NCBI RefSeq assembly: GCF_025526975.1
Contig: NW_026515699.1
Coordinates: forward strand, 1-64,000
Direction of reading: 5' to 3'
Source: Fimicolochytrium jonesii
Taxonomy: Eukaryota
Length of the DNA stretch: 64,000 nucleotides
Under the pieces are notes generated by a model. The model did not search any database. It was not told where the DNA came from and worked only from the letters and a program-made list of their open reading frames with translations. Both the position numbers and the translations under genes were made by a program. Of this stretch, positions 20,881 to 64,000 are shown piece after piece. Positions within the stretch are counted from its first letter, which is position 1. Every line of letters starts with the position of its first letter.

Positions 20881-20890
20881 CTATAAAAAG
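20881..20890 (+). promoter_or_regulatory. TATA box of the secreted protein gene
   Basis: CTATAAAAAG about 110 nt upstream of ATG 20990, followed by a CA-rich 5' UTR. Confidence 0.6.
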
Positions 20891-20989: not shown

Positions 20990-21490
20990 ATGAAGTTCAC
21001 CACAGTCTTCGGTCTCGCCGCTCTCGCAAGCACCGTCTCCGCCCGCTGGGAAATCGCCCGCGGCGGCGATTGCAGCACCTGCGCGGCCAATTCGTGTATT
21101 TACCGAGTTAGCGATATGCGTTCTGATGGTAAGTTGTAACCCGCCATCTCACCCCCGCTCGCCAGAGTCACATCCTCGCTTCATTTCCCCTAACATACCG
21201 CCATCACAGGCAAAATCGACTCCCAATCCTCCGTCGGCTGCTACTCCGGCTCCGTCGCCATCGACCGCGTGCTCGTCAACGTCCCCGGGCCTAGGTGCTC
21301 CATCCGCTTCGAAGGGCCCGGTAACAGCTGCCGCCTAAACGGCAAGCCCGCCGGGTGGAACCCGCCCATCGCTGCGAAGAAGACCACGAAGTATGGGACA
21401 TCCCAGACGGTTGGGGGAGTGTGGTTTAGTAAGGGGTGTAGGTCGGGTGCGACTATTAGGAGTGAGATTAACAACTTTTGTATGTCGTGA
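20990..21490 (+). CDS. Small secreted cysteine-rich protein (2 exons, 139 aa, 8 Cys)
   Basis: Signal peptide MKFTTVFGLAALASTVSA. Intron 21129-21209 (GTAAGT...CTAAC...CAG) joins in frame to GKIDSQSSVGCYSG...NNFCMS*. Confidence 0.85.
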
Positions 21491-23233
21491 ATGAGGATGG
21501 GGAATGTGGGTGGGATGGATGTTGAGTAGATGTCCCCAAGAGCAACACTTTTCCTTTCCCATCATTCGTCTCCGGTTTCGGCCGGACAGTCGTACTGTAT
21601 ATACTAGATCTAGATCTATATAGAGAGTCTTCATTCTGAGAGACACCGAGTCCTCAACTTGTATATCTACACTGGTTTTACTTCAATCTACTTTCACGTT
21701 TAGTCAAGTATGCCACGCAACGTACAATACATTTAGTTCCCCTTGGCGAATCGTCCATCCCTTCTCATGCGGAGGGATGACCCGTTGCCCATACGTATAC
21801 GCCGAGAACACAACTTCATTGCGGACTCACGGCCAGAACTGCCATTACTTTCTTTTGGGGGGAGACAGACTGGGCGGGCTTCAACTGGGGCAGGGTTTTG
21901 CGGCGGCGGCGGATAAGTTCGGCAAAGGACTCCTCGTAGTAGTCGGCCCCAGCCTGCTGGATGCCCCTCGACGTTGTTTCGGCCCAGTAAGGATCCCCGC
22001 TGTTGGGCGATGGGAGCTCATCCAGTTCGTCGATCGCGTCGGTTTGATGCCCCGCTCACCTGGCATTTGAGCCTGTATTTCCTGGAACAGTCGCTTCGAT
22101 GTTTGCGTGCTACGGGGCAGACGGTCCTTGTTGAAGGGTGCAAGTGGGGCCGACGTTCTCATCCACCCATCCCCCATCCGTCGTCATCAACGTTCGAAGG
22201 ATCGTTGCAGTTACTCTGGGCGCACCAAGCCATCCGACGCCTTGTTTTCCCTGGCTAGAACATCTTCAAATAGATCGGACAAACATGTTCAACGCCGCCG
22301 CAGGGTGAGGGATGGGGCGTTTTCCGGCGGTGTTGTGAATTGACTCAATTGACACAGTGTCACTGAAATGGAGCCGTCACGGGTTCCAATGCCGGGTTGT
22401 GATCGCCAATCGTCCTTGATGTTTGTAATCTCTGGCCAGGACGTTGTTATGGATCGTGGTCTGTCCATCGTTCGAGAAACCGAATCCAAACTGGTCCGTC
22501 CCGCGCTTGAAAATATGCGAGACAAATCTCGCGGACGTCCTCTGGTCTGAAGAAGCCTTGGGATCCAAGCTCCTCCCAACGCCACAAGGTCATCCATCCA
22601 TCACTTGTGGATTCTGAAAACTTGAATCGTTCATTCTCCAGTTGTTGCGTGAAGGTGTTCTTATTCTGCCAACCCGCCCTCATGTGTGCTATTTTCCATA
22701 CACGTTTCTGGGTCCGAGGGTTTCACAAAAGCCAAGAACTTGCGTCCCCCAGAGCACCAGCAAAATGGGCATAACACTGACTCGTTTGTGTAACTCCATG
22801 GTTCGTGTTTTTCCTGACCATTCGCCCGCTTTGGCAAGATTCCGCCACCTTGCCGTAGAACGTTGGATAAGGATATGAGCTTTGTTGCGGGTGGAAGGGC
22901 AGGAGTGGTGTGCGAAGCGTAACGATCCTCGACACGCACAGTAGCTGGAGAACGTTGAGGCGTGATGGGGCGATTGCAAGTGAGACATTCCACCCCGCAG
23001 AATTCGTCCGTCGTTATTGGTTTCTTCTCGGGCCAATACACAGGTCTGATGAGCTTCCCAACGTCGCGACTGAGCTTCCCAACATCAAGAACGAAAAGCA
23101 TCTTGCACTCGCATCAGATTTTAATATACAGATTTACACTTTTCCTCGCTTTCCTCGCCACTTTACACACACTACACATAGAAAACACACGCGCTATGTA
23201 TACATTTACAAGGAAGGTCAGAAAGAGACGTGT

Positions 23234-23803
23234 TCACTCCTTCTTCCAGAGACGAGCTTCGATGTTGCGGCGTTCAACCAAATGGGCGGGCTCACGAGCT
23301 TCAATATCGCGGCGTGGAACCCGTTCAGCCTTCCAGAGACGTGCTTCGATGTCGCTGCGTTCAACCAAATGGGCGGGCTCACGGGCTTCAATGTCGCGGC
23401 GTGGAACCCGTTCAGCCTTCCAGAGACGTGCTTCGATGTCGCTGCGTTCAACCAAATGGGCGGGCTCACGGGCTTCAATGTCGCGGCGTGGAACCCGTTC
23501 AGCCTTCCAGAGACGTGCTTCGATGTCGCTGCGTTCAACCAAATGGGCGGGCTCACGGGCTTCAATGTCCCGTGGAACCCGTTCGGCCTTCCAGAGACGT
23601 GCTTCGATGTCGCTGCGTTCAACCAAATGGGCGGGCTCACGGGCTTCAATGTCCCGTGGAACCCGTTCAGCCTTCCAGAGACGTGCTTCGATGTCGCTGC
23701 GTTCAACCAAATGGGCGGGCTCACGTGTCTCCAGGACCGGGACGGCGGCGGCGAAGGCGGTGGAGGCGGAGACGAGGAGGAGGATGGCGGATGTGAACTT
23801 CAT
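23234..23803 (-). CDS. Secreted tandem-repeat peptide precursor (KEX2-processed repeat protein-like)
   Basis: Signal peptide MKFTSAILLLVSASTAFAA, then 6x EPAHLVER and 5x LWKAERVPR(R) plus a terminal LWKKE. The units are separated by [L/I]xxR, PR and RR sites. Confidence 0.85.
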   Translation of the reverse strand: MKFTSAILLLVSASTAFAAAVPVLETREPAHLVERSDIEARLWKAERVPRDIEAREPAHLVERSDIEARLWKAERVPRDIEAREPAHLVERSDIEARLWKAERVPRRDIEAREPAHLVERSDIEARLWKAERVPRRDIEAREPAHLVERSDIEARLWKAERVPRRDIEAREPAHLVERRNIEARLWKKE

Positions 23804-23980
23804 GGTTGATGATCTGCTTGTTGAGAGAGGTAGTGTTGGTGTTGTTGCGAGGCGGTTGTTGTTGGTTGATGAGAAGAGGGGATCTGAATGAGGGTGGCCG
23901 GCTTTTATGCCCTTTTTCGGATTGCATGGTAGTTGGCGAAGTCCTTGCCGGCGTACGCGTCGTCGTCGTAGGGGAAGCTA

Positions 23981-24309
23981 CATTGGCGCGTAGGAAAGGA
24001 AAGGAGAGGCCACAGCGGGCGTTGGGAATAGCTAAGGCACCAGCGGTTGTGGGCGCCGGCGGTTCAGGAGTCGCGCATTGTTGCAGACACATTGGCGCGT
24101 AGGAAAGGAAAGGAGAGGCCACAGCGGGCGTTGGGAATAGCTAAGGCACCAGCGGTTGTGGGCGCCGGCGGTTCAGGAGTCGCGCATTGTTGCAGACACA
24201 TTGGCGCGTAGGAAAGGAAAGGAGAGGCCACAGCGGGCGTTGGGAATAGCTAAGGCACCAGCGGTTGTGGGCGCCGGCGGTTCAGGAGTCGCGCATTGTT
24301 GCAGACACA
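23981..24309. repeat. Three identical-looking 109-bp tandem repeats
   Basis: A unit starting CATTGGCGCGTAGGAAAGG recurs at 23981, 24090 and 24199. Confidence 0.95.
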
Positions 24310-25964: not shown

Positions 25965-28900
25965 CTATTCTTCCATCTCTAAACTACTCTGTCTCAAGCT
26001 CTGCATACCCGCCCCCTCCCTGTTCCCTCCCCACCCCTTCCTCCCACTCCCTTGCCCATACCAAACCAAAAGATTCGGGTAAACCCCCAAGCAAAACACC
26101 CAAACACTGCCAATACTCCCCAAAAACATCCGGAAAAACACTTTGCTGACCATCGGCATCGGCGAGAGGGCCAACAGTAGCACGGAGAGTAGCGCTCCCA
26201 CGAGGGCGTAGGTGAGCGATACCAAGGTCGCTGTACACCATTTGGATGTCTTCACTTTGTTGGTGCTGTGCGATACCGTTTCGTGGAAGAGGAGGGTGTA
26301 GGCCTCCGATGTCGATAAGGACTCGATGTAGGCTTTTTGGATATACCCCAGGAAATCGTTCGCGATCGACATCGAGATTAGGGCGTTTGCTATAATCAGC
26401 GGGTTTAACTACACAAATCACACATCACAACACCAGTCAATTCTACGTTGAAGTATCGTCGTCGGTGATATGAATGAACGCACCTGGATATTAAGCACCG
26501 GAAGCGATGCAAACACAGTGATGACGGTCGCGAGCATGATGGGTACGGAGAGGAAGGTGCTGCGGGCGTTGGCGAAGAGGGACAGGTTGACGAGGACCGC
26601 TCCGCCTGGAATGCAATCGTATCATGTAAGTGGTCATGTGGGAACAGAGGGGGTGTGAGGAGGACGTACCGATGAAGAGGAGGAGGCCGGATGCTGCTTC
26701 GGCTGTTAGTGCCTCACTGTAACACGAGAGTAGGAGGGGGGATTTAGTGTGGCGGTTCGGGAAATCCCGAAGCTGTGATATATGCGAGACTTACAACACC
26801 CTCGCAACGATATCCACCCTTCCAAACGTCTACAAGAAATCCACGTTAGCGTAGTATCACCTTTCAAAGCATTAAACACCCTCAAATAACTCACCGCAGC
26901 CTCAACCCCCGCCGAATTCAAAACCCCCCTAACCCCCACAACTGCAGGCGTATACTCATAAACTGTTTTCCTATATTTATAATCCACAAACATCCTCGAT
27001 GCGACCACCTGTCCCTCGTCATCGACCTTGATGTTCGCGCGGTGGCATATCCCGCCGTACGTCGTATCATTCAAAAACAGCGCCAACCACTCCCCGGCTT
27101 TCTCTGGAGGTATGATATCTGCCGCCGGGGGTATTTCCGATTTGTGAGGGCTTGCTGCTGTTAGCCAGAGTTTGAAATCTGCGAGCCAGAGGTGGGAGCC
27201 AGGGTCGACGTAAGGGAGGGTTTGGAGGGCTTGGTGGAGGGAGAGAAGCGAGTGTTGAGTTGGGGCAGACAGTTGGTTGGGGGTTGTGAAGACTATTGTG
27301 AAGGTTTCTGATGAGGGGTATTCCTATGATTGAAATGATTTGATAGGTTAGTCCGAGTGGGATGCAACTGAGTTGGAAATACTGCCGTACCTGCATGTTC
27401 TGCGCCAGATATCCTGCCACAGCACCCTTGGAGTTGACGAAATCGAGCACAAACATGTCTCGCTGGATATACGCCATACCGAGAGGTGCAAGGAGCGCAA
27501 AGGCGGCGAATGTACCTATCTGAAAGGTATGCAAAACAGTGAGAAAAGCAATCGTTACCTATGAGACATGTTTGCTTCGAGTATGACACGGTATTCATAG
27601 ATATGCCCTACCGTAAGCCGCTTCCCCAACGACGTCCCAATTAACGCATCGTAGAAATTGCCTAACTTCCGATCCAGCCACGTCAAACTGGCCTCTGTCC
27701 CAGCATGTGCATGCCCATGTCGTGCGGTGTTGTTAGGTAAGAAAGAGCAAAACAAATCATTCCGCCCTTCCCGTATCCTCTGTTCGTCGAGGACGAGGGC
27801 CGAGCTGACGGAGGTGAGCATGAGGAACATGTTGAGCGCTATTGCCAGCGCGCACTGCATGAAACGAGAAGCTCGGTTGTTAATGTAGATGGGAATGAGG
27901 GGGGAAGCGGAGTTCTTACCATGATGCACATGGATGTGATGAGCCGCATGGGCAGGATGCAGCAGAGGAAGAGCCCCAGTGTCATTTCGATCGTTGCGGT
28001 GAAGAGTGCGTACCCGACGCTGTGCATTGTTGCTGCCATCCTATCCGCTGCCGGTAGCTGCAAATCGGGCAAAACCAATCAGCAATCATGCTACGCTGAG
28101 ACAAGAAAAACTCAAATCCCCGCTCGAATACTTCGACGATACACACCTCCCGACTCCTGTCCGCAAACCCCCTTTTCAACAAAAACACGTTATCCAGCCC
28201 AACCCCAAACACAAAAAACGGCATAATCTGCAACGTCAACGGATGCACCGGCACTCCAAAAACCGATGCCATGCCCACGCCGCCCGCCATAGCCACACAT
28301 GAATTCGCCAAGGCAAACAACGCCAGCCCGGCTCGCGATCGCACACGGTCAAAGTGAAAATCACCGAGGGCTAGCGAGGTGTAGGCGAACATGATGATGA
28401 ACCCGCCGAGGAAGAGGAAGGCGGTCTCGGCGACCGTTTGCGAGAGCTCGTCGGTTATGCTGTTGGTCGTGATGTACGTCAACTGAAAACCAGGCCGACC
28501 GTACGTCTCGTCGGAGCCACGCTCATTCGCCTCTGTGACGATTCGCACAAACTCCCGTTCAAATGCCCGGGTCAAGCGGTCTGCGTTGGCATCGTCGACG
28601 GCGGTGAAGAACGGGATGCTGAGTTTGAGAGAGGTGCCGCGTGAAACGAGGCGTGGGCTGTGGGTTGTCCATTCGAGGTCGCCGATGGTGCTCCCGGAGG
28701 CGGCGGAGGAGGATTTGCAGTAGGAGGTGTGTTGGAATGAAAGGGTGCGGTGGATGTGCTGGTCGGTAAGCAGGTCATGGCGGGTGGCCCAGACGTCTTG
28801 CACGGGGCTGCAATGCACCCGAAGGGGATGTGGGACCGGCATACGCGAGTAGAAGGAATGATGTCGAAATGTGTCAATCGAACACGCTACGTAAACCACT

Positions 28901-29455
28901 CCGCTCACAGCAAGCGAAACAAACCTCTGAATAAAGCATCCCACCTCCCCTCCGCTCGTCAACACTTTGACACAGATATCATCCAACCCCTTCATTCCCG
29001 TCCCCCCACCCGCGTTCACCTTGATCCCCATGATCGTTTCCTGCAAATCAAAGAGCGCAAGAAGAAACTTGTGTTGGATCACGGACGTGCCGGGGACGGT
29101 TGGTCGGAGGATCAGGCTGACGCCGCCACCTCTATAAGGAGATATGAATCAACTTCGGAAACAACGATGGATAGCGCCGTTGGCAGGCATATTTGGACAG
29201 CCAGACTTACTTTCCAAAAGACGCCTCAACCTTCTGCTGCTCCATCTGTACCGCGCTGCCCGCCGCCGAAAGCAATTTGACCGGATCGCTTTCCCAATGG
29301 ACCTGAAAGAGCCCCAGGCACGGAACCAAACTGCAGAGCAAGGCGATGGTGATGCATCGTTTTGGATTCGTTGAGACGTTATGGGCTAGAGCGTCGGCGC
29401 CGCTGTCGACATGCCGGCGGATGGCGGTGTGCAGGTTGACGAGGTACTGGCCCAT
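25965..29455 (-). CDS. Patched-related / NPC1-like sterol-sensing-domain RND protein, multi-exon
   Basis: N-terminal TM followed by ESDPVKL, a luminal loop (LDDICVK..CFIQ), the SSD with MPFFVFGVGLDNVFLL (GxxxD), and a second TM bundle LNPLIIANALISMSIANDF. No NPC1 N-terminal domain. Confidence 0.85.
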
Positions 29456-34146: not shown

Positions 34147-34652
34147 CACTCAGTGGTGTGGCGGGGAATGGAATAGTGTCGTTTTTTTGCGTTGACAATG
34201 CCGTCGTGCAAGAACAAGAAAGGGAGGTTTGCGAAAGTCATATTCCCATTGCTATGCATTGATGATGTGAAGTCGGGCTGTTTCCCAACTAGGTTGCCCT
34301 GCCCCCAAGAGTCTTCCTACTAGTGTCCCACGGTGTGCTTGCTTTCCTGCGTGTTTGAGATATGGGAGCGGGAACAAGCGGAGAAGGGCGGTTTGACAGT
34401 TTGACGTGGATGAGTCACCAAACGCGTGAATTCGACAGGCTCCTCCAACGTCAATTCGAAGTTTGGGGTCCAGCACTTGTGGGCAAGCAAGCTCCCCCCA
34501 GTCCCTCCCAACCACTCAACAGCCATCGCATCGCATTATACCCCCCCAATTGCGATGTTTATAAAGCCGCCCGCCCTTCTCCTTTCGCCGCTCCTCAACC
34601 AAGTCACCACCACCACCCGCTTATCCCCGACGAGGAATCAAAAATCCCAAAA

Positions 34653-35518
34653 ATGGACATCGCACCCCGTCAAATCCGACGCCCCAGACCGGCTGCTGCC
34701 CCGGCAACCACCACCACCTCCACCAGCACACCCCCATCGCCACCCAACCCGATGCGCATTGCGATCGCGCACAAGCAAACCCCCGTGGAAAAGATCCGCA
34801 AACGCTACCCCGGCGGGTGCACGATTGTCGATGTGACGTCCAAGGCGGAGATGCCGTGGCGGAAACTATCGCCGTTCTGGCCGCATGGGGGGTTTGAGGT
34901 GCCCACTGAGAAGGGGAGGGTGGGTGAGAGTGTTGAGGGTGTCTGGTGAGTTGTATTCGTAGTAGTCAAATCACACACTCTCCCATTTTTTTTCCTTCCG
35001 CAAACTGACTCTCACCCCCATCCCATCCCATCCCAACGCACGCTACGTGTACTGTAGGCAAGGCCTCAAAGTATTCACCAACGAAGGCCCCGACACCTCC
35101 CGCCTCCACATCACCGACCTCACCAACCTCAAACGCGGCCGTTCCGCACGCCGTGGAGACGTCCTCGGGCACGCTCTCACCTTCGCTCCCCCTGCCTCCG
35201 AGAGTCCACCCCTCATGGACTACGTCACAGCGCGAAAACGTGTATACCTCCCCCTGTACGCACAACAACTAGCGCGTGTGGATGAGGAAGTGGAGGAGTT
35301 GAGGCGGCTGAGTATGGAAGGGACGCTGGTGTTGTTGGATTTCGGGACGAATGGGACGGTGGAGGATTTGAGCAAGCCGTTGAGTCATGCTGCTTTGGTG
35401 GGTGCGGGGGTGTTGCGGACCGATTTTTGGTTCATATAAGACAGACTCATTCTTGTCACCTTCTTTCGATATTCAGATCAAAGCGTTCTTGGAGGATAGG
35501 TATCCCGCGTGCGAGTGA
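34653..35518 (+). CDS. DUF6939-like protein (bacterial-type family), 3 exons
   Basis: Motifs IVDVTSKA..PWRKLSPFWPHGG, SVEGVW|QGLKVF, DYVTARKRVYLPLY and LVLLDF.TNG.VEDLSKPLSHAAL|IKAFLE. Introns 34946-35057 and 35398-35476 restore the frame. Confidence 0.75.
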
Positions 35519-35910: not shown

Positions 35911-37165
35911 ATGCTCCACTCCCACTCCCACTCCCACTCCCACCACAACCCACTACTGCTCCCTCCACAACAACAACCACCACCACCGCACTCCCCCTCT
36001 CCTCCTCCCCCTGCTCCTTCCAACCCCGATAAAGAACAAGCAGCAGCAACGAAAATACAAGCCGCTTTCCGCTCCCACCGCACAAACAAAGCACTCGCCT
36101 CCCTCGCCGCATCCCCCTCCCAACTCTGGTCAACCGCCCTGCAAAACGCCCGCATCGCCCTCTTGCACGAACACAACGCTACTTGGACCGCCGCCCAAAC
36201 CCTCCCTTCAGCCCCAAACTCACCAACAACAACAACAACGCGAGCCATATGGAAACGCGGTGCACTCCTCACATCCATCCTCGGCAAGGGCTCAGCTGGA
36301 ATATCCAGTGACAAGTCACTTACCTTACTCACCGAGCACTGGTTGGAGAGTTCAGATGGCTTGCATCGGTATGGGAGTAACTTGAAGCCGTACCATGAGT
36401 TGTGGGTGCAAAGCGGGACCCCACAGCCGTTTTTCTATTGGTTGGATCATGGGGACGGCCGTGACGTGGATTTGGAACGCGAAGGGAGGAGTAGGGAGAG
36501 GTTGATGAAGGAAAGAGTGAGGTATTTGGATGAGGTCGAGAGGAGGGCTTATGAGGTAACGTGTGGTGGACGACCGACCGCGACGACACCCTTTTCATTT
36601 TCTCTTCGCGACTTTTGAATCAATGTTACTATAGGTGACAGTAAACGACGGTCTACTCATCTACAAAGAAAGCGGCGACCCCGTCCACACCCTCCCTCCC
36701 ACCACCACCTCCTCCTCCTCGGGCGATATCCTCCCGGACTCGGACCCCAACGACACGGAAGAAGAGCGCCTGCGCAAAAAACGCCTCCGCAACGCCTACA
36801 AACACATCTACATCCTCTCCCCGACGTCCCAACTCTACATCGCCCGCAAACAAAAGGGCCAGTTCCACCATTCCTCGTTTTTGAACGGGGGCACCGTGTG
36901 TGCCGCGGGCGGCATCGTTGTTGACAGGGGCAGGTTGAGGAAGATCAATACAAAGAGCGGACATTATCGCCCCGGGAAGATTAACGTGGGTGAGGTCGTG
37001 GGCGTCTTGACCGGGTGGGGGGTCAACATGGAGGGCGTTGTTGTCAGTAATCCGTTTGATCAGGAGGGGGATGGTGATAATGGCCATGGCCATGATAGTC
37101 CGTCTGTTGCCGGTGTGAGTCCGACGAGGGAGGAGGGGGACGGGATTGAGGGGCTTTGTATATAG
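35911..37165 (+). CDS. IQ-motif calmodulin-binding protein (IQM-like)
   Basis: IQ motif AATKIQAAFRSHRT, plus HWLE..D..HRYGSNL, QPFFYWLD.GDG and GQFHHSSFLNGG...SGHYRP. Intron 36556-36634. Confidence 0.85.
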
Positions 37166-38312
37166 GTTGTGGGCGCATAATTCTACTCCTGACGCAATAG
37201 ACAGACAGCTAGACATTGCCCGCAAACAAAAGGGCCAGTTCCACCATTCCTCGTTTTTGAACGGGGGCACCGTGTGTGCCGCGGGCGGCATCGTTGTTGA
37301 CAACGGCAGGTTGAGGAAGATCAATACAAAGAGGGGACATTATCGTCCCGGGAAGATCAATGTCGGCGAGGTCGTGGGCGTCTTGACGGGCTGGGGGGTC
37401 AACATGGAAGGCGTTGTTGTCAGTAATCCCTTTGATGAGGAGGGGGATGGTGATAATCGCCATGGCCATGATAGTCCGTCTGTTGCCGGTGTGAGTCCGA
37501 CGAGGGAGGAGGGGGACAGGATTGACGGGCTTTCTATATAGGTTGTGGGCGCATGATTCTACCCCCGACGCAATTAGACAGACAGCTAGACATCGCCCGC
37601 AAACAAAAGGGCCAGTTCCACCATTCCTCGTTTTTGAACGGGGGCACCGCGTGTGCCGCGGGCGGCATCGTTGTTGACAACGGCAGGTTGAGGAAGATCA
37701 ATACAAAGAGCGGACATTATCGCCTGGGAAAGATGAACGTTGGCGAGGTCGTGGGCGTCTTGACCGGGTGGGGGGTCAGCATGGAGGGCGTTGTTGTCAG
37801 TAATCCGTTTGATTAGGAGGGGGATGGTGATGATGGCCATGGCCATGATAGTCCGTCTGTTGCGGGTGTGAGTCCGACGAGGGAGCAGGGGGACGGGATT
37901 GAGGGGCTTTGTATATAGGTTGTGGGCGCATAATTCTTTTCCCGACGCAATTAGACAGACAGCTAGACATCGCCCGCAAACAAAAGGGCCAGTTCCACCA
38001 TTCCTCGTTCTTGAACGGGGGCATCGTTGTTGACAAGGGCAGGTTGAGGAAGATCAATACAAAGAGCGGACATTATCGCCCGGGAAAGATCAATGTCGGC
38101 GAGGTTGACCGGGTGGGGGGTCAACATGGAGGGCGTTGTTGTCAGTAATCCGTTTGATCAGGAGGGGGATGGTGATGATGGGCATGGCCATGATAGTCCG
38201 TCTATTGCCGGTGTGAGTCCGACAAGGGAGGAGGGGGACGGGATTGAGGGGCTTTGTATATAGGTTGTCGCACATAATTCTACTCCCGATGCAATAGACA
38301 GACAGCTAGACA
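36837..38312 (+). repeat. Four tandem copies (~376 bp) of the IQM 3' coding end plus 3' flank
   Basis: Copies start at 36837, 37213, 37590 and 37967. Later copies carry substitutions, a stop codon and deletions. Confidence 0.95.
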
Positions 38313-53758: not shown

Positions 53759-56700
53759 ATGTCATCACACCAGGCGCTCCAGGGGCACCTGTGGTGTGGC
53801 ATCCTTACCGGAGTAACCACACCACGGCGGAAGAGGAGGAAGGTTACTCCGGTTACCCCGCGGTTGCCCTTTACCCTGCGGTTGCCCATACGTCTGCCAA
53901 CCGCTGTGCAGACACCATTGCAACCCCCGCAATTCGAGTTCCCACCTTCTGTCCAGCGCCACTTGCCCCAAGCAATTGCAGACATGGTTGGCGAGAGCTC
54001 CGGCGATGAAGACGGGCAGCAGCAGCAGCCGCAGCGAGGGCTTTCACCCGTGGACAGGGGTCTGCAGCGCCCACTGAACCTCCCCGCGCCCATCCCTTTC
54101 CTTTTTCCCAGCACACCGGGTGGACCCCTGGTGTATGAACCCCCGCCACCACCACCCCCGCCACCACCACCAGCTCAACGACCCCGCCCGCAGACACACG
54201 CCAGCACGAAGGTTTCCCTTCACTGAATCCAAAATCACAATCAAGTCCAAAGGGAGCGCCTGACAACGTTCATCGCCGATGTTCACGTCCTTGCGCGCCA
54301 CACCACCTTCTTTATCAAGTACTACCTTGGTGAGTTTTTGAGATACACTATACTGTATACTTCCCATTAAACAATGTCCTGACTGCTACATCTGCCCACC
54401 CCATCACAGCTGACCATCCTCTACACGATTTCCCGGACATCACCGACAAGCACATCAGTGTGATGTTTGAGCTGCTCAACAATCCAGGCTACAATGGCAA
54501 TCCGCTCATCGCGCAAGAGTTGCGTCCATGGGTTCAAGACTACTGTAATGTTCACGGATTCGCCCCCATCCGCATGCAAAATTGCCAACAGACCGCAGCG
54601 TACACGGCTACAAGCATCCTCACAAACCTCAAAGTTAACGTACAAGAGCATTTCATGCAAATGTTTCTGCGCTACGTCAATGAAAGGCTTGGTTTGAAGC
54701 AAGTCTAACAGCATCTCCGGAGAGCGCAGCGGCGACACTATTATCGTCGTGTCCGTCAATTTACAAAGTACGCGACGTTTGAAGAGTACCCAACCGAAGA
54801 GGAGCTTGCGCGCCTCACACGACTTGAGCGGACCATCCTCGACGAGTTATGGGCTCTGTTTCCTCCCCGGGATGAGCCGCTTGCGTACAGCCTTGCGGTG
54901 GACGCAATGCCATATTTAGGTGAGCTATGTCCCGTACATTTGCCCCCCCCCCCCCCCCCCCCCTCCAGCTCGTGCGTGACTGCGCAGCGACGCGAGCGAG
55001 CGCCTTGCTTGGTACACCGACCTGGCCAAGTGGCTGCGCGCCGGGACCCGGGCCAACGTGGTCCCCCCCCCGGCCAACAGGAAGCGGAACCCCCCTGCGG
55101 GTTCCTCTTTTATCTAATCATGGTCCGCACCTGCCTCGCCTCATCACAGGTGCCTATTGTGAGCTCTCACGCCTCTATGAGCGCCGTGGAATGCGGCTGT
55201 TTTCCGCTATCCCGCTGCGCAAATCTCGAATCCAGTCATCTGTTCGGATCGACACGGAGATCCTAGGCACTCATATCCTGGGCTTGGGCCAACATCGCAT
55301 GGGGAAACTCACCGATGAACGCAAGCAGGAGCTGTGGGGGCAGTTTCTCAACGTGAATGTAAGTCTCTATCCCTCTGCGCTTATTTCACTCACCTCACCT
55401 CGCTGAATGACGGATTGCAGGACAAGGTCTTCAAGGATCGAAAGAAGCTTGGTCTCAAATTTGATGGGTCAATCAGCACAAACGGGTATTCCGCTACCAT
55501 CCACTTCAAGAAGCCAGGGCTAAAGTACGGCCATCGCGCCCAGAAGCGCAGCAAAGCCCAAATGCAGGAAGAAGTTAAGCAGCTGTATTTTGAGCACCAC
55601 ATCGCCGAACTACGGGAGGCTCCAAACATCGTTAGCATTGATCCGGGCAAGCGTGACCTCTTGCTCTGTCGAGACATCAAGAAGGAGCGGCCATTTCGGT
55701 ACGTTTCAGTTGATTACTACTGCCCTGCTGTCCCCGCCAGCCCCCCGTCTCCGCCCGCCAGCCCCCCGTCTCCACCGCCCAGCCCCCCGTCTCTGCCCCC
55801 CAACCCCCCGTCTCCACCCCCCAGCCCCCCGTCTCCGCCCGCCAGCCCCCCGTCTCCGCCCGCCAGCCCCCCGTCTCCGCCCGCCAGCCCCCCGTATCCG
55901 CCCGCCAGCCCCCCGCCAGCCCCCCGTCTCCGCACCCAGCCCCCCGTCTCCGCCCACCATCCCCCCGTCTCCGCTGCCGCTCCCACCGCCCCTATCCCCA
56001 CCATCCCCATTGCGGCGACATTCCGTTGCAGCGTTCTCACAATGCACCACCCCGTACCAGATACACATCCAATCAACAGGCGGTCGAGACAAAGTCTCGG
56101 TACTTTCAAAGAGACATGAGAGAGCGAAAGATCAATGCCGGCATCGCTGAGATGGAATCACATATTCCATCGCACAAGAGCATGAACATCGAGGCGTTCT
56201 CAGCGTTCATTGTGGATTACGAACATGCGGGTATGATGTATCACGCATCGTCTTCAAATTTGGTAACACATGGGCTGACATCCATCCATATCCCAGATCC
56301 CGCCCTGGATGAGTTTTACCAGGATGAGATTCACGTGGCTCGCAGATTCAAGGCGTTCTCACTGCGGCAAAAGTCCCAGAGCAAGCTCATCAAGAACATG
56401 CGACGCCTGTATGGAAGGCATTTTTCGGTCATCTTGGGTGATTGGAGCGACGCTGGAAAAACCATGCGCTTTCAGGAGTCATCAAAGACCAAAGGGTGAG
56501 TGACTATCATTGGTAATATGTATTACAGTATGTCAACTCATCATGGAAATCAGATTCCGCACACTCTTTGCAAGAAACAGCATTCCATGCTACTTGCTAG
56601 ATGAGTATCGAACGTCCTCCGTGTGCCCCAACTGCCACGGCCGTGTAAAGAAAAACATCCGACAACGGCTGTCATCTCGGCCGTGGCAAGCTAGAAAGGG

Positions 56701-56923
56701 AAGAATGGAATACGTCCATGGATTGGTGGGTTGCCCCAACCCCGAATGTATCAACCAAGACTGGACGCCATTTGAGATTCCTGGAAGACGACGACCACTA
56801 CGACTACGGATGAGAGTGCACAATCGGGACGTCCTGAGCACCAAGAATTTCCTCTCGATTGTGCGTTCGGTGGTGTTTGGCAATGGCCGCAGACCAGACG
56901 CATTCTCCCGTAACCGTAGGTAG
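53759..56923 (+). pseudogene. Fanzor: Fanzor1 (eukaryotic TnpB-family RuvC RNA-guided endonuclease), 7 exons, two premature stops
   Basis: Introns 54330-54409, 54920-55149, 55359-55420, 55699-56060, 56231-56296 and 56496-56553 give a continuous ~768-codon frame. Motifs: FSAIPLRKS..VRIDT, FDGSISTNGYS, RuvC-I SIDPGKRD, ILGDWS, RuvC-II LDEYRTS, CPNC/CPNPEC and RuvC-III NRD. Confidence 0.92.
55731..55975. repeat. 21-bp C-rich minisatellite inside Fanzor intron 4
   Basis: About 10 units of CCGCCCGCCAGCCCCCCGTCT and variants. Confidence 0.9.
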
Positions 56924-61161: not shown

Positions 61162-64000
61162 TCAATCACTATCCACGTCCCCGCCCATCGACCGGCCCGT
61201 ATTCCCCACCCTCGACGTCCTCGACTTCGCATCACTCTCACTAATCAACCGTTTCGTCCCCGCCGCGACACCCACAACGCACGCGGCCAACTCCTTCGCA
61301 GCCGCCTCACTCAACACAAACTCCAGCGTCCCGTCCTGGGTCACCACTCTCAGCGTCGTCAACGCGGCCGGGTCCGCTTTCCCCTTCTCCGCGGCCTCGA
61401 CGGTGCTCAGTTTACTCGTGCTCATGTTATCGGTGGACGACGCCCCGGTTCCGTCGAGGGAGGTGGCGTTATTGCGCACGATAGCGTGTTCGGTGCGATA
61501 GACCTCTGTCTTGCTACTCCCGCCCTCGCTTTCAGGCGGGTAGTCCACGCAGAGGTACCCCGTGACGGCAGTAACGTTCGCCGTGCGCCAGCGTGCGACC
61601 CAGTTCCAGTTGAGCATCTTGGACGTCCCGCCGGAGATCTGGAGGGTGGGGACGTTGTGCAGCTGGACGCCCGCGACTTTGCGGACTTCTTTATGGGTGG
61701 TGGTGGTGCTCAGTTTGGTGCCGCCGATGGTTGTGGGGCCGACTTTGCCCCCCGCACCGCCGATGCCGGTGGAGAGCATGTTGCGGGAGCTGGTGTTGGC
61801 GGTTACGGCGCGTTGTTGGAGCGCGCGCGGTTTGTCGATCGGGTTGAGGAGGATGAGGAATTTGGGCCCGTAGACGCAGGATTCGGTTACTGCAGTGCCG
61901 ATGAGGACGGCGAGGCAGCGAAGGAGGTGGGCGAAGCTGGCGAATGTCTGCAAATGCGATGAATGTTAGCGGTAGATCACACAAACACATGTCCAGATCC
62001 CATCCTCTGAAATAGTAGGACAGCATTACCGTAGTATAAACCAACGGCAAAAACAAAGCACAAACCGCCACAATGTTATAGACCGAGATCCCAATCCACT
62101 TTGTCTCATTGAACGTCGACACGACATGACGGGTCTTGTAGCTGAGCAAGGTGGTCAGGAAGAGCAGGATCCCGTTGAACACAATCGAGACGACCGTCAT
62201 CGTGCGCTGAACTTTTGCGTTAGGGGACACGCAGACTTGCACTGTCTCGAGGTCGTTGACGTTGATGGTGGTGGGGACCGGCGTGCTGACGCCGACCCAG
62301 ATGCCGGAGATGATGATTTCGACCAGGACGACTCTGCCGGAGGTGGAGGGAGGGTGATGAGTTTCACGACGGTTTGAGCAGGAAAAGGCTTATTTGAGAA
62401 CTCACAATCCAGCGAAGCCCATGAGGTACATATCCGAGATGGCCCGTTCCATCATTTTGGGATTGTTGAAGATCTGCATCGAGCGATTAGGAACTATATC
62501 AGAGCAACGGTCGGCAAAGGGATGCGCATCATACCTTGTACACACGCCAAGTCTTCGCCATCAAATTCGCAAACACGAGCCCAAACCCAATATTGAAAAT
62601 AAACGGCTGAGCGACACAAGTCCACTTCTTCAAAGTCCCCGTATACAAGAACGGCGTGATATCCAAAAGCAGCAATCCAACCAAAATCAACACCAACGAT
62701 TTCCAACTCGCGCGTTTGATCACGGATTTATTACGGCATGTGTACACCGCCGCCATCGACCCGACGTTGGTGGCGAGGAGGATGGCAGCGAGGACCGTGA
62801 AGAGCAAGCCTTCGGATGATTTCCAGGCTGGGTTGAGTTGGGTTAAGGGAGGGAAATCTGTTGGGATTTGCGTGGATCCGCCGGCGAAGAGGAGGCCGGT
62901 GGTGTTGACTTTGGCTGTGTCTCCGACGAATTCGACGGCGGTTGGGTAGGAGATTGTGGCGGCGTACTTGGAGCCGTAGAGTTGGGGGAGGATCTGGACT
63001 GAGAGGGGGCGATCGAGGGTTTCAGCGGGACATTGAACCAGTCTGATCAGTTCAAAGTCAATCTGGAGAATGGAGCACCTGCTACTCACTCGTTTTGTAA
63101 GCGTAATCCCCGTTGGGCAGGAAGTAATACGGCCCGCTCAGCCCAGTCCTGTTCGTGTTGAAGATGGTGAGATCGGCCGGCGGTGAAGCCCTTATGTTAC
63201 CAGGGGGAGGCACCAAGGATGCTGCAGTGTCGCCAGTGCGTGCGAAATACTGACGATAGACGGGATAGCGTTCTGATTAGTTCAGCTCAGAGAACATGTT
63301 CGAAGACCACGACGAATCATCCACTTACGTCGTGGTATCCCCAGAGAATCGCCATCGTACAATCCCAGTATCGGCTAGAAGGAGCAGAATGCGGAAAGCG
63401 TTAGTTTGTCATCTTATGGTATCTGGCCCATGGTTTCCATACTTCTTCTGGAAATAAACCGAAATCGAACTTACTCATTGGCGATATATTCCCTCCCGAT
63501 ATCACGCGTCGCATTTTCGGCTTTTGAAACGAGTGCGTATTGGGCCTTGAAAGTAGCGTAGATTTCGGTGGTGTAATCTGGGTCTGCGGTGGCTTCCATC
63601 AAAACTCCCGCATTATTGGCAACGTCCTCTCCCAGGATTCCAGCTACCGAGTCACTCATTCCCCAATCGCCGTACGGAAAGTCGATGATCCCTAATGTAT
63701 CGACGGAGCGTCATTGGGCTGTGACTTTTCGACAAAGCGTATGACCCTGCCACGTTACCATTGGAAGTGACCCACACATAATCGGGGCCAGTGAGTCCAA
63801 GCTCGCGCGCTCTGATCCACATGGGGGTAAACTCATCCTCATAGGCTGATAGCATGGGATGTCACCGAAGCAGCGGTGAGTGGAGACTCGCACATTCTTG
63901 ACTCACCTGCGACGACGATGATTTTGACTTTCGAAGCGATGATGGACTGAATACAGCTCTCCATATCGCCCATTTGTCCGTCGCCGTTGAATCCTTGATT
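61162..64000 (-). CDS. Class C-like GPCR (periplasmic-binding/ANF ectodomain + 7tm_3); 5' end outside the window
   Basis: VIKRASW, WTCVAQPF...GFGLVFANLMAKTWRVYK and SYKTRHV.STFNETKWIGISVYN. Ectodomain ARELGLTGPDYVWV. Confidence 0.88.

Follow-up and report, generated by a model that had tools for sequence, protein, structure and literature searches.

Introduction

Fungal KEX2-processed repeat proteins (KEPs) can be recognised from sequence by two published rules. The rule of Le Marquer calls for at least four fragments on cutting at KR or RR, at least three of them alike, with repeats occupying more than 15% of the length (PMC6339444), and that of Umemura for at least three repeats of 8–100 aa lying between KR, KK, RK or RR (PMC7329392). 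Across 19 chytrid strains the second survey lists 178 KEPs, not one of which has a DUF3328 gene beside it; it reports no homologue for 2560 of 7878 KEPs and places no DUF3328 protein in phyla outside the Ascomycota and Basidiomycota (Umemura 2020, PMC7329392). Fimicolochytrium does not appear in the strain lists available from either survey (PMC6339444, PMC7329392), and where PMC6339444 gives examples of lineages lacking KEX2, the passage names other lineages and not chytrids. Mushroom KEPs expressed in Pichia were reported to yield products ending at a single Arg, and the kep knockouts had no phenotype (Vogt 2022, PMC9769878). Kex2 is described as cleaving after Arg at P1 with an aliphatic residue at P4, and as tolerating Arg, Thr, Pro, Glu or Ile at P2 (PMC8528282); acidic residues are reported downstream of cleaved sites (PMC2515848), and the definition of the LxxR site comes from the SnTox3 preprint (10.1101/2020.05.27.120113).

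Here we describe a repeat gene found in a 64,000-nt stretch of DNA (the window) from Fimicolochytrium jonesii. A first-pass annotation had called the host a basal fungus, and this is borne out: it is a soil chytrid of the Powellomycetaceae (Spizellomycetales), with cleanly aligned coronin exons that are 97.5–100% identical to the F. jonesii protein. The best matches to one of the coronin exons are from Spizellomycetales. The encoded protein resembles KEPs (Le Marquer 2019, PMC6339444; PMC7329392; PMC9769878) in having a predicted signal peptide, no transmembrane segment and compact, near-identical repeats separated by RR. It differs from them in that the repeat protein contains no KR, that 28 of its 32 arginines are monobasic (mostly [LIV]xxR) and that its predicted core has only five residues. 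With the chytrid KEPs surveyed it shares the lack of DUF3328, and with the 2560 orphans the lack of a detected homologue (PMC7329392).

Three other classes of precursor invite comparison. The ascomycete alpha-pheromone precursors likewise encode a multi-copy linear peptide within a prepro-protein, with acidic spacers and a core that carries Trp close to its first residue. However, their KR-(EA/DA)n ahead of the core is absent here, and the core here is much shorter. No X-A/X-P run for Ste13 precedes the core, which directly follows IEAR, and after the other [LI]E[TA]R site there is just one Glu-Pro, in all six units. Reliable Ste2/Ste3 homologues were not found in Chytridiomycota, where animal-type GPCR families are present (PMC3251606). 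The label 'pheromone-like' in the first-pass annotation is thus not supported. The K2PP effectors (SnTox3, ToxA, SIX1/4/6; PMC8528282, 10.1101/2020.05.27.120113), share an aliphatic P4, Arg at P1 and a variable P2, at the end of their pro-segments, with the sites described below. Those effectors are folded proteins that lose one pro-domain, whereas here the pro-segment is repeated six times and a folded mature domain is lacking, with five residues after the last site and a pTM of 0.15. Rep1 of Ustilago maydis is similar in being a Kex2-cut type of repeat protein with many peptide copies, cleavage being predicted in the present case. Its peptides are said to form water-repellent surface fibrils (PMC8528282), whereas the repeats here are highly charged and not notably amphipathic.

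Results and discussion

Positions 23234–23803 hold, on the minus strand, an uninterrupted frame of 189 codons. Analysis of the ORF, its repeats and its hydropathy identifies this as a single-exon CDS for a 189-aa predicted secreted repeat precursor of the KEP type. The N-terminus reads Met-Lys, then a hydrophobic stretch (Kyte-Doolittle 2.58 over residues 3–11), then Ala-x-Ala at residues 16–18. From hydropathy and an Ala-x-Ala heuristic the signal peptide is predicted to span residues 1–18 (23750–23803, minus strand), with the cut possibly one or two residues later. There is no further hydrophobic segment in the 189 residues (best 19-residue mean −0.55). Downstream of the predicted signal peptide there is no Cys, Tyr, Gly or N-glycosylation site, and Tyr is absent from the whole protein.

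Of the 15 distinct single-base differences among the repeat copies, 11 leave the amino acid unchanged when read in this frame, where the neutral expectation is a fraction of 0.24 (p = 7e-5), and the sole indel is in frame. The same test gives 0–3 of 15 in four other frames and 10 of 15 in one antisense shadow frame, so on its own it leaves the strand unfixed. The strand was therefore chosen from the signal peptide and from three flanking features. A TATA-like element lies about 100 nt upstream of the ATG (23902–23909, minus strand), the leader that follows it is G-poor and C/A-rich (4 G in 75 nt), and an AT-rich element that may be a polyadenylation signal lies about 105 nt past the stop (23119–23128, minus strand); both elements are assigned by resemblance. 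A rough codon-adaptation score over the first 27 codons is 0.742 for this frame against 0.731, a narrow margin, and over the whole gene the score does not favour this frame. Third-position GC across those 27 codons is 89%. The gene call rests on the combination of these features, and we consider it very probable that the gene is coding and that its predicted product is secreted. Two antisense ORFs were rejected as the annotated product, being absent from a collection of 15 billion proteins. A 109-nt unit is present in three perfect copies at 23980–24309, some 180 nt upstream of the start codon; the rest of the window shares none of its 14-mers, and the triplication is either a recent promoter-region event or an assembly artefact.

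Tandem Repeats Finder reports an 87-nt period at 23243–23725, with 5.6 copies, 97% matches and a score of 882. When the units are begun at Val-Pro there are exactly six, of 81, 84, 84, 87, 87 and 87 nt. The ORF of the first-pass annotation is present as described, with repeats of 84 or 87 nt apart from the 81-nt first unit, and its '5–6 copies' is corrected to six whole units. All units lie on the minus strand. Unit 1 (23663–23743; 27 aa, pro-region) begins two residues past the predicted signal cut, and its start aligns with that of the internal units (for its first 21 nt and those that open unit 2, DNA shuffle p = 0.0015). Units 2 (23579–23662) and 3 (23495–23578) are of 84 nt each. Unit 4 (23408–23494) has an RR site at residues 106–107 and is identical to unit 5 (23321–23407), where the RR site falls at residues 135–136. 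Unit 6 (23234–23320) has a diverged end, carries RR at residues 164–165 and 178–179, and terminates at the stop codon.

The inner units differ from one another by one base and by one codon-sized indel with one adjacent base, and the two outer edges of the array are more diverged, which would be the pattern expected from unequal crossing-over. Two copies of a DIEAR-type cassette, always after R or RR, are found in each unit; they agree at 18 of 21 nt, a score reached in 0 of 5000 shuffles. The idea that the two halves of a unit are homologous in their cores was rejected, as the blocks between the cassettes are unrelated (shuffle p = 0.36). The simplest history would begin with one prepro-peptide, of which the pro-region and core were then multiplied together as a block. 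No second copy of the array exists elsewhere in the window. Directly past the stop, at 23224–23232 (minus strand), nine bases match the ARL stretch of the repeat, a score equalled by 55 of 4220 control tiles; they may be what is left of a seventh unit.

Cutting at the four RR sites divides the protein into pieces of 89, 29, 29 and 14 aa and a C-terminal remainder, each of them with the repeat when judged by eye, which agrees with the rule of Le Marquer. For the rule of Umemura the fragments are 89, 29, 29, 14 and 9 aa. A signal peptide and the absence of a transmembrane segment, the further marks of a KEP, are indicated by hydropathy and the Ala-x-Ala heuristic. By published sequence rules the protein is a KEP, with its cleavage predicted. 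The first-pass annotation had proposed a secreted multi-core precursor of this type, and the ORF, the signal-peptide-like start and the six-unit array support it.

The 32 arginines fall in IEAR (11), LVER (6), KAER (5), RVPR (5), VPRR (3), LETR (1) and VERR (1). Dibasic sites account for four of these, all RR, and units 1 and 2 have none; the KR cleavage sites expected in the first-pass annotation are not borne out, as KR is absent and RR makes up just 4 of the 32 sites. At all 32 arginines P4 is either Leu, Ile or Val (22) or Lys or Arg (10). Kex2 reportedly accepts a basic P4 as well. Shuffling a single unit gives p = 0.010 for an aliphatic P4 (4 of 6 sites) and p = 0.002 for an aliphatic or basic one (6 of 6), values that are optimistic since they rest on one unit and on residue classes that we chose, and since a single cassette, present twice, supplies two of the six sites.

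LETR, LVER and RVPR fit Kex2, since Thr, Glu and Pro are among the P2 residues tolerated and P4 is aliphatic (PMC8528282). The Ala at P2 of IEAR is absent from the top-five P2 list given there, and Leu comes next. After most of the sites the sequence goes on with Asp, Glu or Ser-Asp, in line with the downstream acidic residues reported in PMC2515848. A Ser/Arg swap in unit 6 creates a canonical VERR site. The least canonical site is KAER, followed by Val-Pro, and it is this site that would end the pentapeptide. Cutting at every Arg is predicted to yield LWKAE five times, LWKKE, EPAHLVE six times and small acidic pieces, with calculated monoisotopic masses of 645.349 for LWKAE, 702.407 for LWKKE and 793.397 for EPAHLVE; if KAER were skipped, the predicted product would be LWKAERVP, and cutting only at [LIV]xxR would leave LWKAERVP-led pieces. 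We judge it probable that the precursor is processed into peptides.

Every unit ends in LWK(A/K)E, and the next codon is Arg in units 1–5 and the stop in unit 6. The stop thus stands in the column of the Arg of the other units, which indicates LWK(A/K)E as the core. From this register the predicted cores, all on the minus strand, are LWKAE at 23666–23680, 23582–23596, 23498–23512, 23411–23425 and 23324–23338 (cores 1–5), and LWKKE, the C-terminus of the protein, at 23237–23251 (core 6). LWK(A/K)E is also the sole predicted fragment with Trp or Lys and with a pI above 6. The stop register and this uniqueness favour cutting at every Arg, with KAER as the weakest link. At its final two codons unit 6 bears little resemblance to the other units (the change of Ala to Lys alters all three bases), so the alignment of stop and Arg could be chance. 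A linear product of the LWK(A/K)E type, as proposed in the first-pass annotation, stands as the best guess, and the six-unit register adds an argument for it.

These observations can be joined in a model in which the six-block protein would be secreted and cut after its arginines by a Kex2-type protease. A Kex1-type carboxypeptidase would then trim the Arg from the C-terminal side of the fragments, releasing six short linear peptides, LWKAE five times and LWKKE once; EPAHLVE, SDIEA, DIEA and VP, all of them acidic or neutral, would be left over as spacers. The peptide would probably act outside the cell, as a signal or an antagonist, and the array most likely arose when one entire block of pro-region and core was copied in tandem, raising the dose of peptide per transcript. 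We give roughly even odds to this reading as a whole, that is, to a KEP-type precursor with Kex2/Kex1-type processing into six short linear LWKAE/LWKKE peptides that serve as an extracellular signal or antagonist. That the active product is a short peptide led by LWK(A/K)E is, to our mind, a proposition that could fall either way; its ends are predicted, and longer products are possible. A more specific version, in which LWK(A/K)E is a chytrid signal (a cue for zoospore aggregation, encystment or mating) released mainly at monobasic LxxR sites and sensed by the animal-type GPCRs that chytrids have kept instead of Ste2/Ste3, appears improbable. A likeness to the cnidarian LWamides was rejected, since LW is N-terminal here and the Gly needed for amidation is absent. 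A full-text literature search for LWKAE found nothing related, and in the literature searched, which takes in few subscription journals, no work on peptides released by Kex2 in zoosporic fungi was found.

The main alternative is that only the best sites are cut, giving longer peptides with a helical surface or coat role (cyst wall, adhesion), in the manner of Ustilago Rep1, whose peptides are described as making surface fibrils (PMC8528282). Cutting at RR only is predicted to release two 29-residue pieces (27-mers after trimming), and the Glu-Pro dipeptide after [LI]E[TA]R in six of six units would allow Ste13 to expose 17–20-mers that begin at AHLVER. A single-sequence AlphaFold model of the mature part, of low confidence (mean pLDDT 59.7, pTM 0.15), shows no stable fold and one helix of 16–17 residues per unit, without packing, on the stretch from AHLVER to LWKAE. 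However, the canonical VERR site of unit 6 lies in the middle of this helix, the sequence is highly charged and without a long hydrophobic stretch, and an amphipathic helix was rejected since the best helical moment of the unit is not above that of shuffles (p = 0.33). We therefore regard longer peptides as a possible but doubtful reading. Structure matches from the Atlas were set aside, as the underlying model has a pLDDT of 0.51.

Release of the short peptides at every Arg, the reading that we prefer, also has to be set against the lack of relatives. No homologue was found among proteins of 103–331 aa (7999 candidates, E up to 0.01) or of 30–102 aa (6581 candidates, E up to 10). Searching 1.84 billion representatives with phmmer produced 11 matches at E up to 0.001, all of them unrelated repeat or coiled-coil proteins; nine were inspected in full and two in part, and none holds a copy of the unit. 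In metagenome contigs the unit pattern had 204 matches, none confirmed, and the tandem DNA pattern 12 loci, eight with a single IEARLWK and none with a tandem precursor, and PDB sequences gave no match. The collections searched are thin in chytrids. Motif searches in the supplementary data of the two KEP surveys were likewise empty, a blank of little weight. The exact 189-aa protein is absent from the 15-billion collection, where the window's ABM-domain protein is present, so the repeat protein may be unannotated there. The Atlas does contain the exact protein, and its nearest feature clusters score 0.87, 0.83 and 0.82, all below the bar of 0.9; the third is a cluster of MF-alpha precursors (0.82), which we treat as a lead. 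A Pfam scan of the protein gave three weak, unrelated matches, all below the cut-offs, and none to MF_alpha or MF_alpha_N. The gene is a real-looking, lineage-specific KEP.

The absence of a relative in any search would also suit a young or decaying orphan, in which an LxxR pro-region expanded by unequal crossing-over after the loss of its mature domain and no peptide function was selected. The near-identity of the units implies a recent expansion, the perfect 109-nt triplication upstream shows that the region duplicates readily, the yield would be poor (a five-residue product per 28-residue unit), and the recurrence of nine nucleotides of the unit past the stop weakly points the same way. The synonymous bias and the in-frame indel stand against such an origin (though the bias may partly predate the expansion), as do the intact signal peptide, the 89% third-position GC of the first 27 codons and the intact promoter-like and 3′ elements, and on balance it is unlikely. 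It is a little less likely still that most of the secreted protein stays uncut and that it serves, as a charged repeat protein, in a gel, coat or spacer role. The predominance of monobasic sites (28 of 32) would accord with this, as yeast Kex2 is reported to prefer Lys or Arg at P2; however, the four RR sites, which have Val at P4, come near the ideal for Kex2, and there is no Cys, N-glycosylation site or long hydrophobic segment for anchoring in the wall or membrane. Finally, a dikaritin-like RiPP precursor with a core cyclised by tailoring enzymes is scarcely credible: the outline of signal peptide plus repeats is shared with ustiloxin-type precursors, and Trp or His is reported to replace Tyr in a minority of DUF3328-linked KEP types (PMC7329392), but the protein has no Tyr, DUF3328 neighboured none of the 178 chytrid KEPs in that survey, and no DUF3328 or tyrosinase gene was matched in the scans that follow.

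Pfam scans of 142 ORFs across the window (nearly all of those of at least 125 aa) and of 150 of the 160 ORFs of 60–124 aa between 13 and 34 kb (all save the first three and the last seven) found no DUF3328/UstYa, tyrosinase or transporter. A paired HxxHC motif occurs in no frame of the window. The sole peptidase match in the scans is an M13 domain 21 kb from the repeat gene. The first-pass annotation had noted that no DUF3328/UstY gene was visible nearby, which holds for the ORFs scanned; its inference from that absence carries little weight, since DUF3328 was found only in Dikarya in the survey of Umemura (PMC7329392). The RiPP or dikaritin flavour that it gave the protein is not supported, there being no Tyr and no DUF3328 match. 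The locus is not a RiPP cluster.

As a class the protein is ordinary, since KEPs are common in chytrids and about one third of fungal KEPs are orphans by the survey counts. Its repeat register supplies a specific and cheap candidate peptide for a zoosporic fungus, and the array is a clean natural substrate on which to test whether fungal kexins cut at monobasic [LIV]xxR in repeat proteins. If they do, surveys confined to dibasic sites would miscall products and miss precursors that have no such sites. If the GPCR-signal reading were true, a zoosporic fungus would have a peptide of defined sequence as ligand in signalling between cells, testable with a synthetic peptide of five residues.

The closest neighbours of the repeat gene are a small gene convergent with it, for a Cys-rich secreted product, and an NPC1/Patched-like gene. 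The former, at 20990–21490 on the plus strand, encodes a small predicted secreted protein of 139 aa with 8 Cys, and has one predicted 81-nt intron (21129–21209) and a TATA box at 20882; its exon 2 had no Pfam or Atlas match. The latter (about 26000–29150, minus strand) is a multi-exon gene with a sterol-sensing domain. From 29818 to about 32650 on the plus strand runs a long Cys-rich gene of several exons; its start resembles a signal peptide, a dibasic site, VKRR, falls at about residues 60–63, and its open stretches had no Pfam match. A DUF6939 gene of two exons lies at 34359–35436 (plus strand). At 61694–63137 (minus strand) there is a Class C (7tm_3) GPCR gene, of an animal-type family reported in chytrids (PMC3251606); a link between it and the peptide gene was rejected, as the two are 38 kb apart with no evidence joining them.

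Further repeats and a Fanzor1 homologue are also present in the window. Five internal telomere-like TTAGGG repeats lie at 2829–2859, and a 377-nt unit at 36837–38312 occurs four times at 91% identity, apparently repeating coding sequence. A homologue of Fanzor1 (eukaryotic TnpB-like) lies in pieces at 55319–56920 (plus strand), where two stretches match Spizellomyces punctatus Fanzor1 (PDB 8GKH) with E values of 4e-15 and 1e-29, and a 21-nt tandem array at 55733–55974 separates the two.
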